Source: Candidatus Harpocratesius repetitus
GTDB taxonomy: Archaea > Asgardarchaeota > Lokiarchaeia > Sigyniarchaeales > Promethearchaeaceae
Assembly (NCBI GenBank): GCA_021498095.1
Contig: JAIZWK010000001.1
Span: forward strand, 1,740,001-1,772,000
DNA length: 32,000 nucleotides
Direction: 5' to 3'
In this document: positions 18,865 through 25,977 of the stretch, piece by piece
Layout of the letters: the number at the start of each line of letters is the position of its first letter
How positions within the stretch are numbered: the stretch's first letter is position 1
Made by a program: the position numbers and the translations under genes
Notes under the pieces: generated by a model
What the model was told of the DNA's origin: nothing
The model's database searches: none
The model's input: the letters and a program-made list of their open reading frames with translations, nothing else

Positions 18865-18948
18865 CTTCATTGGAAAAGAAAAAAAGCAAAAAAGTCAAAA
18901 ATTACCTCTCGTTATTGCAACTATAATAATTCATGGAAAGTGATAGAA

Positions 18949-21024
18949 ATGAAAATATTGATGATACATAGTAATGGAGCTACAATGAAGAAGTATGCTC
19001 CTGCCACATCCAAACCTCAAGAGTACTCTGAGAAAGAACTTCAATTGGAAGGAAAAGTGCTTGTTTGTTTTATCTCAGTTGAAGATCAAGATACATTTGA
19101 TATAAATATTATTTCAAATCAAGCAGTTAATGAAATACTTAATGCTGTTGACTTAATTGAAACGTTTCCTGAGAAAATTAAGGAAAAAAATGCAGAAGTA
19201 GAGAAATTTAACGATGGTTTGAAAAAAGCGCAAGAAAAAGGATTTAGGAAAAATGAAAATCCCAAACAGAAAAAATCGTTAATACTAGACCCTTCTATGT
19301 ATAAAGTAGATAAGATTTTGGTTTATCCATGGGCTCATCTCAGCAATTTTCTTAGTCAAGAATCAACTGCCATGGAAGTATGTCCAACAATTGCTAAAAT
19401 CTTAAAAGAAAAAGGTTTTGACGCTTATTTCTCTCCTTTTGGATGGTATAAAGCATTTACTTTAGATTGTCTTGGACATGAAGTTGCAGAAATGTATCGA
19501 GACGTACCTTTGGCACTGTTGTCTACAGATGTAAGAGCAAAATCTGTTTTTAAAATTGTAAATCCTGACAAATCAATTGAATTTTTCTGTGATAGTTCTG
19601 AAGAGGGTAAGAAAAAGGCAAAAATTCCTAAAAAATATCCTAAAGACTTTAGAGATTTTATTAAAGCAGAAGTCCTCAGCTCACGTGAAGCTGGACGCGA
19701 AGAACCTGCGCACATTAAATTAATGAAAAGGTTTGAACTTGCTGATTTTGATGATGCAACAGATGCTGGAAATTTAAGATGGTACACAAAAGGTTTACTG
19801 ATGAAAAATTTGCTTCGTGAATATGTAGAGAATCAAGTTGTAGAACATGGTGCTATTTATGTTGATACACCTGTCATGTATACCGTTAAAAATAAGAAGT
19901 TGACAGCACAAACTGCTCGATTCCCTGCCCGTACTTATTGGGTTCACAGTGGAAATAATCGATTTTTACTCCGATTTGCTTCTGATTTTCTATTATTTAA
20001 TATGTTTTCTCAAATGAATATAAAAGCGGAGCAATTGCCCATTCGTGCTTATGAATATGAACAATATGCATTTCGAAGGGAACAGGCAGGAGAATTAGCC
20101 GGATTACGTCGTCTTCGTGCTTTTACAATGCCTGACATGCACACTTTATGTAAAGATCTTCCACAGGCTGTGAAAGAATTTAAAGATCAATTTATCTTAT
20201 CTAATAAAATCCTGCGAGATCTTGGCTTAAAATCATATATGATTATTAGAACAACTGAAGATTTTTGGGAAGAAAATAAAGATTGGATTTTAGAAATTAT
20301 TTCATCTGAAGGAGAACCTGCATTAATAGAACTTTGGCCAGAACGATATTACTATTTCATTTTAAAATATGAGCGCCCAGTTCTTTCTGCTCAAGGACAT
20401 ACTGCTTGTCTTTGTACAAATCAAATTGATGTTGAATCTGCTCAAGAATTTGTAGAACAATATGGAGAAAAAAGACAAAAATATAATATTAAGTGGCATG
20501 ATAAATCTGGTAATGAAGGACATCCTATAATTTTACATAATTCTCCATCAGGTGCAATTGAACGAGTAATTTGGGCTCTGTTAGAATCAAGTGAAAGATA
20601 TAAGGATACTAAGGTTCCTGGATTTCCATTATGGCTTTCACCTGTTCAATGTCGTGTTGTATCAGTAAGTGAAAAAGAAAAAGAGTATGCTGAAAAAATT
20701 GTCGAAAATCTGAATCAAATCAATATTCGCTGCGATTTTGATGATCGAGACGAAAAAATAGGTAAAAAGATTAGAAGTGCTGAAATTGAATGGATCCCAT
20801 ATACTATAATTGTAGGAGCGAAAGAAATGGAGAATAGGACAATATCTATTCGAAAAAGGTTAACAGGAAAACCTTTTGTTAATGGAAATTCAAGTGAGCA
20901 AATTAATGATATTTCACTTGATTCATTAATTTCGGAATTAGAACAAGAATTATCCGGATTTCCAAGAAAAACACTACCAAAACCATTCCGTCGTTTCAGC
21001 TCTCGGATATTTTTCAGACAATAA
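18949..21024 (+). CDS. thrS: Threonyl-tRNA synthetase, archaeal type with N-terminal editing domain
   Basis: MKILMIHS, VYPWAHLS, PFGWYKAF, FRREQAGELAGLRRLRAFTMPDMH, PIILHNSPSGAIER, and anticodon domain DDRDEKIGKKIR. ATG 18949 is preferred over GTG 18940. Confidence 0.97.
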   Translation: MKILMIHSNGATMKKYAPATSKPQEYSEKELQLEGKVLVCFISVEDQDTFDINIISNQAVNEILNAVDLIETFPEKIKEKNAEVEKFNDGLKKAQEKGFRKNENPKQKKSLILDPSMYKVDKILVYPWAHLSNFLSQESTAMEVCPTIAKILKEKGFDAYFSPFGWYKAFTLDCLGHEVAEMYRDVPLALLSTDVRAKSVFKIVNPDKSIEFFCDSSEEGKKKAKIPKKYPKDFRDFIKAEVLSSREAGREEPAHIKLMKRFELADFDDATDAGNLRWYTKGLLMKNLLREYVENQVVEHGAIYVDTPVMYTVKNKKLTAQTARFPARTYWVHSGNNRFLLRFASDFLLFNMFSQMNIKAEQLPIRAYEYEQYAFRREQAGELAGLRRLRAFTMPDMHTLCKDLPQAVKEFKDQFILSNKILRDLGLKSYMIIRTTEDFWEENKDWILEIISSEGEPALIELWPERYYYFILKYERPVLSAQGHTACLCTNQIDVESAQEFVEQYGEKRQKYNIKWHDKSGNEGHPIILHNSPSGAIERVIWALLESSERYKDTKVPGFPLWLSPVQCRVVSVSEKEKEYAEKIVENLNQINIRCDFDDRDEKIGKKIRSAEIEWIPYTIIVGAKEMENRTISIRKRLTGKPFVNGNSSEQINDISLDSLISELEQELSGFPRKTLPKPFRRFSSRIFFRQ

Positions 21025-21487: not shown

Positions 21488-22846
21488 TTATACATGATCA
21501 AAATCAATTTCTATTGACTTATTTTCAGGCCAATTAGCTCGAAGTAATATATCCCGAGAAGCTTCATGCGTTCTGATGATTGGGAATCCAGTAAATTCTG
21601 AAAGTTTTCTCGCAAAAATTAGTAAATCTTGGAAACTTGGTGCAAATTCACGTAATTCATGCCCCTTAGCAAATTGACCAAGACGATTAGTCAATTCCAA
21701 AGCATTGGCTTCCACAGTAAATCCTTTTATATCTATAAAATTTGGAGGGTTTTTTTTCAAAATTTCTGCATAATCTTCAACCATATCTAGATCGATGTTT
21801 AAAAATTTTACAGATGTTATTCTTACAACCGTTCGGCATGGTAATTTTGGTAGAAGAGCTAGAGTAGCATTTAGATTTTCCCAAGAATTTTTAGTTAGTG
21901 GTCGACAAATCTTTGAAAAATCAGATCTTGTAGGCGCAGGAAGGGTTACATAAAGTTGTGTCGGAAGCGAATTTTCTTTCCACATCTTCTTTATAACATC
22001 AGTATTAGAACCATTTGTTACAATAAATGTGCACATTTTTCGATTTCTGAATTCAGAAACGAGTTCACCAATTTTAGGATATAAAGTAGGTTCCCCCGCC
22101 AAAGAAATTGCTGCATGTTTTGGGTGTTTTGCACGTTCAAATGCTTGAATTATTTCTTCTCTAGTGGTAACATTTTCTTTGATAATCCGGGAAATATCTT
22201 CATTTGTATTAATATTTGGTAGAATATTTGGTCTTACCGAATAAATATCATCTGAATCAAGGTTTTGAAGAACTTTACAATTTTTTAATAAAAGAACAGC
22301 GCGATGAGTTTTAGTTTTCGTTTGATTTATTAGTTTTGCAATTTCTGATATTGTAAATCCTACTTTTTCTCTCGAAATTTCTTTGTGTTGAAATTTTTCA
22401 ACATATTTTTCCAAAACTTGATGCATGATTTCAAGATTATCCAACGAACGCTTGAGAGTAATATGTTCAACAACCAGATTTACTGAATGTCGAATCATTT
22501 CATCCACTAATTTTTTTGGGGAATCAACAGGACCTGTCCAAGAGGCTCCGAAAGATGCATTTTCAATATCGCGCCAACAAAAAACGCACTGGTGGTTACA
22601 GAACGGAAGTGCAGGTGTGTTTTGTATGCATGTTTCTGATTTAATTCCAAAATAACCTTTATAACAATTTCGATTATCTCTTCCAGTAAGTAATTTCTCA
22701 GTCAACCAATGACACGGTTTAATCGCAGAATGTTTAGACGGACCAATAATACGATAATTACTTTTCATATATGATTGGATTATTTTATTCCGGTAGGAAG
22801 ATTCACTATTAGAAGAAGAATTTGTAGATTTAGATTTGTTATCCAC
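21488..22846 (-). CDS. taw1: 4-demethylwyosine synthase TYW1/Taw1 (radical SAM) with an internal wHTH insertion
   Basis: HSAIKPCHW, CYK, CIQNTP, CNHQCVFCWR, HAAISLAGEPTLYP, FIVTNG, PTQLYVTL and FIDIKG. Confidence 0.93.
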   Translation of the reverse strand: MDNKSKSTNSSSNSESSYRNKIIQSYMKSNYRIIGPSKHSAIKPCHWLTEKLLTGRDNRNCYKGYFGIKSETCIQNTPALPFCNHQCVFCWRDIENASFGASWTGPVDSPKKLVDEMIRHSVNLVVEHITLKRSLDNLEIMHQVLEKYVEKFQHKEISREKVGFTISEIAKLINQTKTKTHRAVLLLKNCKVLQNLDSDDIYSVRPNILPNINTNEDISRIIKENVTTREEIIQAFERAKHPKHAAISLAGEPTLYPKIGELVSEFRNRKMCTFIVTNGSNTDVIKKMWKENSLPTQLYVTLPAPTRSDFSKICRPLTKNSWENLNATLALLPKLPCRTVVRITSVKFLNIDLDMVEDYAEILKKNPPNFIDIKGFTVEANALELTNRLGQFAKGHELREFAPSFQDLLIFARKLSEFTGFPIIRTHEASRDILLRANWPENKSIEIDFDHV

Positions 22847-22905
22847 GAGAATTCACTAAGTATAAAAAAAAAGGATAGAATTTATGTTTATTCAAAGTAT
22901 TTTTT

Positions 22906-25900
22906 CTATGCTTCTACTTCCAATAAAAATTCAGATATTTCTTGTTTTTTATATTTATAAAGAGTATATCCTAAGAGGAGATATGTGCATGCAAAAATTC
23001 CACCTAAAATAACTAAATATTCAACTATATCGAAAAATATAGGAAAATTGTAAATTTTTCCTCCTCCAGATAATCCATATAATCTACAAAAAGCAACTGA
23101 TGTAAAACTACCTGCAAATGTCCCAACAACTAGAGAAATAAGGAAGGATATGGACATTTCTGAAAAAACTAACAAATTTATTCCTTTCCGTCCAAATCCA
23201 CGAGCAATTAATTCTCCGTATAATCCTCGATTTTGATCTTGCATATTAATTATTAGAATTGCCATTCCAATTGCCAATATAATTCCAATTATTACAAGAT
23301 TAAAGTAGAATAATCCTAAATATGGAATATTCGATTGATTTAGAGAAGTACTTTCGATTTTAGTCCATTGATCATTATATAATTTATAATTTGTATTATA
23401 TAATCTATATGTGGTTGAACTTTTAATCAAATCTTTCATATCTTGAATATTAAATTCAGTTTTTTTTTTTAAATTTTCATTAATGTTTATGATTTCTCTG
23501 ATATTTTTACTTGGAAATATATTAATGTCATATTCTGAGAAGATCTGATCACTAATAACCATGAAATCACTGGGTGTATTTGTCTTTGAAAAATATAATC
23601 CAGGCATCACATCAATAACTTTTATGATTTTAGCTGAAATTTGTTTTGTAATATATTGTCCTGATGTGAAATTAATACTTGAATGTAGAAAGGTGATAGT
23701 TTCCCCTAATTGAAAATTATTGATTGTAAGAAATGTTGAACTAACAATAATTCCCACTTTATTCGTTTCATTTTTCAATTTTTCATTAAAATCAATTGCA
23801 TCTTGTATATCTTTCAGTAAACTTGTTGAAGGTAATAACTTGTTTTTATCTTCAGATATAAGTGAATAATAATCAGATAGATTCAAATAGAATATTTGAC
23901 GAAATCCATTCCCTGTGAATTGATTACGAATAAAAGCATGAGTGATATCGGAAAATATTGTTTCATTCTTCTCATTTTTTAAATTTCCTAGTTGATTTTC
24001 GAAATTGGTTAATTCTGAGTAGTTTGAAAAACTTGTCTTAGAAATTATAAATTCTAAATTAATATCTCCTCCACATTCAATATTAGATTTTACTTGTTCC
24101 AATCGAAATAGTGTATTTGTCGTTAAATTTGAAAACATTAACATTGCAACATAAAAACCAGCCAAAAACATAACTTGTCTAAATTGCTTCTGGCGTACCA
24201 TCTCTATTCCTACAAAGTAATTCTTTTTGCCAACAAAAATTTTAGAAATAAATCTTGAAATTCGAGCATATCTTGGTGGAGATTCGACAATTAAGTATCG
24301 AATTATTCCTACAACAAGTAGCAATGGTGAAATTATTGTCAAAATTATTAAGATATTAATTCTACTATAAAGCACATTTGAAATTTCGATTAATGTATCT
24401 GAAACTAGAATATTTTGGCCTGATATCATTAAAATAAAGAGTAGTATTGGTATTAAAGAACTAAAAACAGCAATTAATCCCCATTTTGGAATTAATTCTT
24501 CTTTTTTCTTCATAAAATTTTCAATATCTAGTTGATCAGATTTATTATTTTCACTATTTTTTTTCTGATAGTATAATGATGATTCATCATAGTCTACATC
24601 ACCTGAGATATTTTTTAATTCAGATGATAATTCAGATGTTTTCAGTTTATTTATATGTTTAATTGTTGACAATGTCGCTAAGATATTTAAAATGGTTCCA
24701 AATAGGAATGTTTCAATAATTGTCTGAGATGTGAAATGAAAATCAAGTCCAAATCCAGTTTGATTAAAATCTTTTAAGAATAGCGGATTTAACCAATGCT
24801 GACCTAAGAAAAATACACCTATTCCCAAAAATATTCCCAAAACAGAAACAAAAATTGAATTTAGCAATGCTTCCATCAAAAATTGATTACGAATCATTTT
24901 TTTTGGAAATCCTCGCATTCGCATTGAAAAGAATTCGTGATACCGTTTTCTTACTTTTGTTTTATTTGCCATAGAACCCATGTAAATTGCGAAAATGTAT
25001 AATGGTAAATTTGTAAATTGGATGGAAAGGCGAACTATTGCTTGGAAATGAAATTGATTTTGGAGGGAAATTGAGAGCAAATTATATGGTTTTATATAGT
25101 TGGGTAATTTTTTTATAAATTGGTTATATTCTGCAGAAATTTCATCTGCTGAAGCACTTAGCCATGAAACTTTTATTTTTGTTCGATCGGAAGTAAAAGC
25201 AACAAAAGTCTTAATGTTGAATAAAAAATTAGTTTTGTTCTCAAATTCCGTATGATTTTGTAAGTGGTTAATTAATATTCTGTTAGGTTTTAATTGAGAC
25301 TGTTCAGAAAAATTAATAGATTGTAAAAATATATTTGAATTGGGTTCAATAACATCTTCTGGAGCTCCAAATTGAAATAAATCTTTTTTAGGTCTGAAAA
25401 ATCCAACAATATTTATGTTTGGTATCTCAATTATTTCGATATTTGTTATACCTAATCTAAAAGGGATCGTTTGATTAAAACCAATTGATAAATTAAATTC
25501 TTGAGCAAATTGTTCATTCACGAGTATTTCATTACTTTGTTTTGGGATATTTCCAGATGTTATTAGAAAATATTGATTAAACCGCTCAGAATTAAAGAAA
25601 TCAGATTCTACTAGAAACCATGTAAATCCATTGTATTTGTTTTGACTTAAATAAAGAAAAAGACGGGGATTAGTATATAACTGATAATAATATGAATTTT
25701 CTATTTCTAAATTCGATGAAAGGAAAGCATTTTCAACTTCAATTTCAGAGGAAGTTATAGAAAAATTTAAGTTTTCTGTATTTGGATTATTTATTTGTGC
25801 ACAATAGTCAAAAACATTATAGTTTGTTTCTTGCATGATGAAAAATTGGGCTGAGTCAAAATAATATCCAAAACCTGCTACCATTGATATTGCTATTGCT

Positions 25901-25977
25901 AATGTTAAAATCGCCAATTTGGAATCATTTACATATTTCCAACTTTCTTTTATGTAAAAACTTAATTTTGTTCTCAT
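22906..25977 (-). CDS. FtsX/MacB-type ABC permease with duplicated architecture (1023 aa)
   Basis: N-terminal TM, a large extracytoplasmic domain (GNIPKQSNEILVN), a 3-TM block after MRMRGF, a second extracytoplasmic domain and a second block after LIARGF. ATGA overlap with the upstream permease. Confidence 0.88.
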   Translation of the reverse strand: MRTKLSFYIKESWKYVNDSKLAILTLAIAISMVAGFGYYFDSAQFFIMQETNYNVFDYCAQINNPNTENLNFSITSSEIEVENAFLSSNLEIENSYYYQLYTNPRLFLYLSQNKYNGFTWFLVESDFFNSERFNQYFLITSGNIPKQSNEILVNEQFAQEFNLSIGFNQTIPFRLGITNIEIIEIPNINIVGFFRPKKDLFQFGAPEDVIEPNSNIFLQSINFSEQSQLKPNRILINHLQNHTEFENKTNFLFNIKTFVAFTSDRTKIKVSWLSASADEISAEYNQFIKKLPNYIKPYNLLSISLQNQFHFQAIVRLSIQFTNLPLYIFAIYMGSMANKTKVRKRYHEFFSMRMRGFPKKMIRNQFLMEALLNSIFVSVLGIFLGIGVFFLGQHWLNPLFLKDFNQTGFGLDFHFTSQTIIETFLFGTILNILATLSTIKHINKLKTSELSSELKNISGDVDYDESSLYYQKKNSENNKSDQLDIENFMKKKEELIPKWGLIAVFSSLIPILLFILMISGQNILVSDTLIEISNVLYSRINILIILTIISPLLLVVGIIRYLIVESPPRYARISRFISKIFVGKKNYFVGIEMVRQKQFRQVMFLAGFYVAMLMFSNLTTNTLFRLEQVKSNIECGGDINLEFIISKTSFSNYSELTNFENQLGNLKNEKNETIFSDITHAFIRNQFTGNGFRQIFYLNLSDYYSLISEDKNKLLPSTSLLKDIQDAIDFNEKLKNETNKVGIIVSSTFLTINNFQLGETITFLHSSINFTSGQYITKQISAKIIKVIDVMPGLYFSKTNTPSDFMVISDQIFSEYDINIFPSKNIREIININENLKKKTEFNIQDMKDLIKSSTTYRLYNTNYKLYNDQWTKIESTSLNQSNIPYLGLFYFNLVIIGIILAIGMAILIINMQDQNRGLYGELIARGFGRKGINLLVFSEMSISFLISLVVGTFAGSFTSVAFCRLYGLSGGGKIYNFPIFFDIVEYLVILGGIFACTYLLLGYTLYKYKKQEISEFLLEVEA

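Follow-up and report, generated by a model that had tools for sequence, protein, structure and literature searches.

A predicted winged-helix domain inside the radical-SAM barrel of Taw1 in a clade of Asgard archaea

A 32,000-nucleotide stretch of the genome of Candidatus Harpocratesius repetitus (GenBank assembly GCA_021498095.1, contig JAIZWK010000001.1, positions 1,740,001 to 1,772,000), hereafter the window, encodes a long form of Taw1/TYW1, the radical S-adenosylmethionine (SAM) enzyme known as tRNA 4-demethylwyosine (imG-14) synthase. In this protein of 452 residues, an added domain of ~95 residues with a predicted winged-helix fold separates barrel helix alpha1 from strand beta2. The insert characterises a subfamily; other genes besides the one in the window carry it, but it is not universal in Asgard archaea. 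As we discuss below, conserved basic residues on its recognition helix suggest that it may hold tRNA(Phe).

The protein was assigned to Taw1 on several grounds. First, TIGR03972 (rSAM_TYW1) was its best family, ahead of any other by more than 200 bits; the score of 250.6 bits lies below the NCBIfam equivalog cut-off of 317.95, with the match split into two stretches by the insert, and short Asgard forms of Taw1 scored 338–399 bits against the same family. Second, a full-length AlphaFold2 model built with a 120-sequence alignment (predicted local distance difference test, pLDDT, 92.3; predicted template-modeling score, pTM, 0.89) matched the solved Taw1 enzymes in Foldseek (2yx0, E 5.5e-25, TMt 0.85; 6djt, 0.88; 2z2u, 0.86; all three TM values normalised to the target), and the match took in the extensions at both ends of their partial barrel. 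Third, Pfam found a Radical_SAM domain; the C-terminal Wyosine_form domain (PF08608) scored 16 bits (E 0.015), under its 22-bit cut-off, and a PF08608 match is precomputed for the close homologues P0015, P0057, and P0069. Finally, Cys45, Cys61, Cys73, and Lys63 lined up with Cys26, Cys39, Cys52, and Lys41 of the Methanocaldococcus jannaschii enzyme and with their Pyrococcus horikoshii equivalents, and these four residues together with Cys83, Cys87, and Cys90 were unchanged in all 120 homologues aligned. An earlier note on this DNA, which described the CxxxCxxC motif, the auxiliary cysteines, and the Schiff-base lysine as intact, was thus right on this point.

The 452-residue open reading frame (ORF) is the sole Taw1/TYW1 in the closed 4.36-Mb genome. 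With an intact catalytic core in the only copy that the genome holds, the protein is predicted to be a working tRNA(Phe) imG-14 synthase. Its closest recorded relative, at 93% identity, is labelled Candidatus Harpocratesius sp., and further close relatives are labelled Lokiarchaeum ossiferum, Lokiarchaeia, or Promethearchaeota. The exact start of the protein is uncertain, because the first 11 residues were modeled at pLDDT below 50.

Position and fold of the insert

Alignment to P. horikoshii Taw1 (2yx0) paired residues 20–126 of the window protein with residues 22–123 and residues 235–404 with residues 135–301, so that 108 residues replace 11. Barrel helix alpha1 aligned to the P. horikoshii helix as far as residue 123, and the beta2/HAAISLAGEP block aligned to 2yx0 from residue 135. 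The short linker that the earlier note had described for characterised archaeal Taw1 is therefore real: 11 residues occupy this place in 2yx0, and ~12 are found at the insertion point of the solved Taw1 enzymes, of other Asgard Taw1 proteins, and of eukaryotic TYW1. From the CxxxCxxC motif to the SL.GEP motif, we counted 163 residues in the window protein and 154–163 in 36 long forms, compared with 65–73 in 8 short Asgard forms and 63–66 in 22 eukaryotic or fused TYW1 proteins.

The borders of the insert were drawn from an alignment of the 36 long and 8 short Asgard forms, all taken from genome loci. The extra segment starts just past helix alpha1 (...MIRHSVNLVVEH) and stops just ahead of the conserved helix that precedes beta2, leaving a winged helix bordered on either side by elements of the radical-SAM barrel. 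Both the coordinates noted earlier for the extra residues (22163–22468, corresponding to residues 127–228) and those for a winged helix-turn-helix (wHTH) pattern within them (22232–22369, residues 160–205) proved correct. An intein or mobile element was considered and rejected: neither the protein nor the insert showed a Pfam domain of an intein, an endonuclease, or a transposase, and the insert is in frame, folded, and conserved. Coordinates of the gene, the insert, and the elements discussed here are collected in the table.

Table. Features of the long-form Taw1 gene and protein, in window coordinates.
Feature	Residues	Window position	Strand	Details and basis
Taw1/TYW1 gene (tRNA 4-demethylwyosine synthase), long form		21488..22846	(-)	452 aa + stop, GTG start; ORF list, translation
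Auxiliary [4Fe-4S] ligands and pyruvate Schiff-base lysine (CYK)	C45, C61, C73; K63	22628..22714	(-)	N-terminal segment; aligned to M. jannaschii KLCGW / NCYK / RCIQ
Radical-SAM cluster motif CxxxCxxC	C83, C87, C90	22577..22600	(-)	Translation
Barrel helix alpha1	110-129	22460..22519	(-)	Continues straight into the insert; DSSP on AlphaFold model
Inserted domain: winged helix plus one C-terminal helix	127-230	22157..22468	(-)	Not present in the short forms of the alignment
Winged-helix H1 (long helix)	131-153	22388..22456	(-)	Conserved R133, N137, Y/L138, M141, L145; models, column statistics
Winged-helix H2	166-172	22331..22351	(-)	Short beta1 at ~163-165 before it; AlphaFold/DSSP
Recognition helix H3	177-189	22280..22318	(-)	Motif S176-K177-x-K179-[IV]-x-R182-A183...L187-K188-N189
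Wing, beta-hairpin	strands 193-195 and 202-204	22235..22270	(-)	Loop acidic, variable; DSSP, charge, entropy
Extra helix of the insert	215-225	22172..22204	(-)	Returns to the conserved pre-beta2 helix; models, alignment
Strand beta2 with SAM-binding block HAAISLAGEP	244-253	22088..22117	(-)	Barrel restarts; invariant columns H244-E252

A winged-helix fold for the insert is well supported by the predicted structures and by searches made with them. In the full-length model, blocks of the insert had pLDDT values of 87–98. A second AlphaFold model of the insert alone, based on 36 aligned inserts of five families, had a pLDDT of 90.2 and a pTM of 0.85, and DSSP assigned the topology H1-b1-H2-turn-H3-b2-wing-b3, plus one further helix, in both models. 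The AlphaFold check proposed earlier for the insert thus gave a helix-turn-helix fold, with a pLDDT of ~90 and uniformly winged-helix matches. In Foldseek searches of the PDB, the top matches were IclR, MarR, CRP, or Zalpha structures; nearly all of the matches listed were winged-helix proteins (IclR, MarR, CRP, Sso10a, Zalpha, ArsR, and SelB), and the remainder were a few enzymes that carry a winged-helix domain. These scores were weak (best E 0.017; TMq 0.39–0.56). VIA, a comparison independent of Foldseek and run over 48,161 chains, returned winged-helix domains for all 50 of the top 50 matches at Z values of 7.3–8.9, which are middling on the tool's own scale, so that the weight of this result lies in the uniformity of the matches. 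Among these 50 are proteins other than transcription factors that bind RNA or another nucleic acid, for instance SelB bound to its selenocysteine insertion sequence (SECIS) RNA, the Zbeta domain of ADAR1, and the Zalpha domain of ZBP1. A search of the ESM Atlas with the insert gave no usable match.

Profile searches pointed to the same fold. The insert of the window protein alone scored E 0.062 against Pfam HTH_IclR, which is sub-threshold, and the divergent Taw1 insert P0170 cleared the Pfam HTH_24 cut-off by itself (26.3 bits). A profile of the 36 inserts matched TFE, FadR, MarR/AdcR, IclR, Lrs14, BirA, RPA32C, and Zalpha structures in the PDB at E values of 0.0015–1, with almost all of its matches there being winged helices and the best at E 0.0015; the values for TFE, FadR, MarR, IclR, Lrs14, and BirA lay within 0.0015–0.2. 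Against 1.84 billion representative proteins, the same profile gave 82 matches at E 1e-3 or better, consisting of long-form Taw1 proteins and of proteins built from tandem HTH_11/HTH_24 repeats.

Placement of the insert in any single wHTH family is not supported, and the profile searches singled out no donor family. The description "IclR/MarR-like" in the earlier note therefore holds for the fold but not for the domain architecture: the insert has no effector or dimerisation domain, its HTH_IclR match is the sub-threshold one given above, and a regulator domain, whether of the IclR, the MarR, or another type, was not detected by Pfam in the 452-residue protein. Five candidates for a free-standing progenitor were rejected. 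P0158 (133 residues) and P0170 (122 residues) aligned to Taw1 residues 107–239, alpha1 included, and are pieces of Taw1 genes rather than stand-alone winged helices; P0159, P0160, and P0192 each contain radical-SAM sequence.

Distribution, origin, and constraint

The window protein served as the query against another 300 genomes of the phylum, and 285 Asgard genomes gave a match. The insert was called present when a continuous match ran through it, and the form was called short when the match was split around it. Families are given here as codes (f1, f2, and so on); the NCBI organism labels for these metagenome-assembled genomes are inconsistent, with "Hodarchaeota" given both to a member of the window's order (P0091) and to one of family f6 (P0225), and Sigynarchaeota to one divergent long form. 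By this measure, ~80 of the 285 genomes carried the insert, including 74 of the 75 sampled genomes of the window's order: all six of its family and 68 of the 69 of a sister family. The exception in the sister family (G300) is a genome of 71% completeness, in which all matches were weak and partial. Outside the window's class, three families carry the insert as well (f17, 3/4 genomes; f11, 1/1; f6, 2/2). In all other Asgard families sampled, the match was split around the insert, with ORFs of ~300–375 residues. Two families of the window's class but of other orders (f3 and f4, one genome each) have an ordinary Taw1, encoded in ORFs of 323 and 341 residues, which TIGR03972 matches over the full length. 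The insert is thus no peculiarity of the gene in the window and has been inherited throughout a clade.

Phylogenetic analysis placed the gain of the insert on one branch. In a tree of 54 Taw1 sequences from which the insert columns had been removed (a quick IQ-TREE run with LG+C20 PMSF), the insert-bearing proteins formed one clade, with a single state change for the long form and a Shimodaira–Hasegawa-like approximate likelihood-ratio (SH-aLRT) support of 97. In a second tree of 30 taxa (LG+F+G4, 1000 ultrafast bootstraps), the branch that sets the long forms apart from every other form (short, fused, or eukaryotic) had an ultrafast bootstrap support of 95. A single gain is the simpler reading, because eukaryotes, the solved euryarchaeal enzymes, and most Asgard archaea have the short form. 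The occurrence of short forms in f3 and f4, and of long forms outside the window's class, implies that there has also been transfer or replacement, or else that taxonomy and gene history differ. As 20 eukaryote-type TYW1 proteins, most of them flavodoxin-bearing, have the short spacing of 65–66 residues between the two motifs, we rejected the idea of a trait shared between Asgard archaea and eukaryotes.

Two side observations concern other Taw1 proteins met in this survey. P0122 and P0123, prokaryotic Taw1 proteins of 568 and 603 residues, are fused to PF01887 and PF20257 (SAM hydroxide adenosyltransferase-type N- and C-terminal domains), which represents another domain accretion in the family, and form a clade of their own among the short forms. 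In one short-form Asgard genome (L041; G026 C1 168500-174500), two near-identical Taw1 copies lie ~3.5 kb apart, with ORFs of 324 and 302 residues.

The insert is under purifying selection that is looser than that on the barrel. Among the 36 long forms, mean pairwise identity was 39% for the insert and 59% for the core. In six close pairs, the ratio of nonsynonymous to synonymous substitution rates (dN/dS) was 0.14–0.32 for the insert and 0.03–0.17 for the core. A basic Ser-Lys-x-Lys-x-x-Arg-Ala motif is kept on recognition helix H3 across five families: over the 36 inserts, Ala183 and Leu187 were invariant, Lys179 was present in 33, and Lys177, Lys188, and Asn189 were each present in 30, with Ser/Thr176 and Arg182 being the other best-kept columns of this helix.

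Candidate roles of the winged helix

Because a conserved basic stripe on a winged helix is here joined to an enzyme whose only macromolecular ligand, to our knowledge, is tRNA(Phe), a tRNA-holding module is the most economical explanation of the added domain, and we give an accessory role of this kind about an even chance of being correct. In this account, a winged helix of ~95 residues entered the alpha1–beta2 connection a single time, in the common ancestor of a Taw1 subclade, and has been inherited since under purifying selection. With the catalytic machinery (radical-SAM cluster, auxiliary cluster, and Schiff-base lysine) left unchanged, 1-methylguanosine at position 37 (m1G37) and pyruvate would still be turned into imG-14. 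The basic face of the recognition helix (S-K-x-K-x-x-R-A...K-N) would contact phosphates of the tRNA(Phe) backbone beyond the anticodon loop, and these backbone contacts may improve either the affinity for the tRNA or its positioning.

Five observations weigh against a tRNA-holding role. First, where winged helices that bind nucleic acids usually have a basic wing loop, the column statistics of the 36 inserts show one that is acidic on average and of high entropy. Second, orthologues differ in the net charge of the insert, from -6 to +9. Third, the insert evolves faster than the core, as the identities above indicate. Fourth, short-form Taw1 works without any such domain. Finally, the alpha1–beta2 connection of radical-SAM enzymes lies on the N-terminal ("bottom") side of the barrel, away from the active-site opening, and the domain may therefore not reach the anticodon arm.

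The acidic wing and a net charge that is not consistently basic would also suit a protein–protein module, which could serve in dimerisation of the enzyme or in docking of a partner, either the electron donor by which the radical-SAM cluster is reduced or another enzyme of the wyosine pathway. The structural matches of the insert include the C-terminal domains of Rpa2/RPA32, ESCRT-II, the extended winged helix of TFIIIC, and the N-terminal dimerisation winged helix of small-molecule O-methyltransferases, and the flavodoxin that eukaryotic TYW1 gained for electron supply is a precedent for domain accretion. However, the best-conserved residues of surface type in the insert are four basic residues and one serine on H3, the usual pattern for phosphate contact, and no conserved neighbouring gene suggests a partner, since neighbours vary between genera. 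We regard a role in protein contacts as rather unlikely.

If the domain instead had no ligand of its own, it could be a tolerated and integrated decoration that stabilises the barrel in this lineage. The faster evolution of the insert and the function of short forms in its absence fit such a reading, and the highly conserved Asn137, Met141, and Leu145 of H1 may simply be an interface with the barrel. Against it stand the retention of the insert in every member of a deep clade of at least five families, dN/dS values well below 1, and conserved charged residues on H3, which would be unexpected in a mere spacer. These features make a purely structural decoration improbable.

A further alternative is that the winged helix binds DNA and that Taw1 moonlights, as BirA does, in gene regulation, for instance as a repressor of the taw1 gene itself. 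The fold, the best profile matches (TFE, FadR/GntR, MarR/AdcR, IclR, and Lrs14), and the basic, conserved recognition helix are all compatible with DNA binding. By contrast, the insert is a lone winged helix inside an enzyme of monomeric type, with neither a dimerisation nor an effector domain, and its acidic, variable wing, taken with its variable net charge, speaks against a repressor that binds an operator in the classical way. Nor is the genomic neighbourhood of Taw1 conserved in the clade, which makes a conserved operator unlikely. Moreover, Taw1 starts only ~60 bp past the stop of the upstream gene, and the sole element visible in this spacer, which was not scanned for repeats, is a T-rich, TATA-like stretch. 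DNA binding by a moonlighting Taw1 is thus very improbable in our view, and a classical repressor role is the least likely of the rivals.

Equally remote is the prospect that, through the winged helix, Taw1 proteins of this subfamily have gained a new specificity or an activity beyond the known one. The domain might be specific for a feature peculiar to the intron-rich tRNA(Phe) precursors of these Asgard lineages, coupling wyosine synthesis at position 37 to splicing at the 37/38 site. Alternatively, it might serve as a nucleic-acid-binding regulator that ties the modification status of tRNA to gene expression.

With respect to the substrate, the genome encodes two methyltransferases of the TRM5-TYW2 type (Trm5/Taw2) and a tRNA-Phe(GAA) gene carrying G37 (G000 C1, ~2043557-2043709 (+), 153 nucleotides, outside the window), so both the substrate and the preceding step of the pathway would be available to the enzyme. 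Introns interrupt this gene at two places, the D-arm region and the canonical 37/38 site. It was located by a strict scan for acceptor and T-arm sequences and had been overlooked by ARAGORN and by Rfam RF00005, which gave 25 matches in the genome; evidently, interrupted and under-detected tRNA genes are numerous in this genome. TYW3 was not found in the genome by a PF02676 search. In the absence of a second Taw1 gene, the long form must do its job alone.

The neighbourhood of Taw1 shows no conservation in the window's genus, and no tRNA-related partner emerged from it. Genes that recur beside Taw1 in family f2 encode a PNP_UDP_1 phosphorylase, a small helix-turn-helix protein, and a GTPase. 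The phosphorylase, of the PNP_UDP_1 superfamily, recurs next to long-form Taw1 in the sister family, at L007:2860-3672 and at the equivalent place in 24 loci of f2 and f1, though not in the window's genus, and could be a salvage enzyme for methylthioadenosine (MTA) or 5'-deoxyadenosine standing beside a radical-SAM gene. In the window itself, Taw1 is flanked on one side by a 694-residue ORF (18940-21024 (+)) that, read from its translation, looks like an archaeal threonyl-tRNA synthetase. On the other side, a 1023-residue ORF on the same strand as Taw1 (22906-25977 (-)), read as a multi-pass membrane protein, ends ~60 bp before the Taw1 start. Within the intervening spacer (22846-22905 (-)), the TATA-like stretch TTTTTTTTTATA lies ~16–27 nucleotides ahead of the GTG of Taw1, a distance at which the transcript may be leaderless or nearly so. 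Elsewhere in the genome, outside the window (G000 C1, minus-strand offsets ~4.189–4.228 Mb), a regularly spaced repeat of ~36 nucleotides, CTGCAAGCTTGAAACTATCAAAGAGATAATTGAAAT, and its CATGC variant occur in copies separated by spacers of ~35–40 nucleotides, an arrangement that looks like arrays of clustered regularly interspaced short palindromic repeats (CRISPR).

Relation to known systems and significance

Taw1/TYW1 is a textbook radical-SAM enzyme of tRNA modification. The solved archaeal enzymes (P. horikoshii PH1705, 2yx0; M. jannaschii MJ0257, 2z2u and 6djt) share with the window protein the family, the fold, the CxxxCxxC motif, the auxiliary cysteines, and the Schiff-base lysine, and differ from it in having ~12 residues from alpha1 to the pre-beta2 helix where the window protein has a winged helix of ~95. 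Eukaryotic TYW1 likewise combines the same catalytic core with an extra domain; archaeal homologues are described as single-domain proteins, and the eukaryotic addition is an N-terminal flavodoxin domain that binds flavin mononucleotide (FMN) and serves in reduction (PMC8941971), in contrast to the internal winged helix of the long Asgard form.

Classical winged-helix proteins (IclR, MarR, GntR/FadR, Rrf2/IscR, ArsR, and archaeal TFE) have the same topology as the insert and provide its best structural and profile matches; compared with the regulators among them, the insert is embedded in an enzyme, has an acidic wing, carries no effector or dimerisation domain, and shows only marginal sequence similarity. 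The SECIS-binding C-terminal domains of SelB and the Zalpha/Zbeta domains of ADAR1, ZBP1, and PKZ matched at Z values of 8.4–8.7, with root-mean-square deviations of 1.4–3.2 over 61–73 residues. In these proteins, the fold is used to hold RNA by contacts with its backbone; they have no detectable sequence relationship to the insert.

Several enzymes carry a comparable module at a terminus. BirA uses its winged helix for DNA, and this N-terminal domain is among the profile matches of the insert. The PqqD-like recognition element (RRE) domains of radical-SAM enzymes that act on ribosomally synthesised and post-translationally modified peptides (RiPPs) bind the substrate peptide, and the winged-helix-like N-terminal domains of the alpha subunit of archaeal and eukaryotic phenylalanyl-tRNA synthetase (PheRS) bind tRNA(Phe). 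The modules of BirA, RRE-bearing enzymes, and PheRS are terminal, the RRE domain usually being N-terminal to the barrel, whereas the winged helix of the window protein lies inside the catalytic barrel. No PqqD, RRE, or PheRS structure was among the best structural matches listed for the insert.

In a full-text literature search that reached only a minority of subscription journals, we found no description of a winged-helix Taw1. With regard to the possibility raised earlier that the insert is a common, known feature of Taw1 orthologues, our survey therefore bears out the first part, within the clade, and found no published account that would bear out the second. The two-domain Taw1 of this large Asgard clade is apparently an inherited and hitherto undescribed variant of a known enzyme.

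The insert is not shared with eukaryotes and therefore says nothing on eukaryogenesis. It is, however, a clean marker, of single origin, of a Taw1 lineage, and its distribution cuts across the class-level taxonomy of Asgard archaea. The two-domain form is the Taw1 used by a whole Asgard clade, including cultured lineages of the Lokiarchaeia type. We know of no structure of Taw1/TYW1 in complex with tRNA. If the added domain does bind tRNA, it would offer a handle for trapping and solving such a complex, and the long-form Taw1 would be a case in which a substrate-binding domain has accreted within the barrel of a radical-SAM enzyme.

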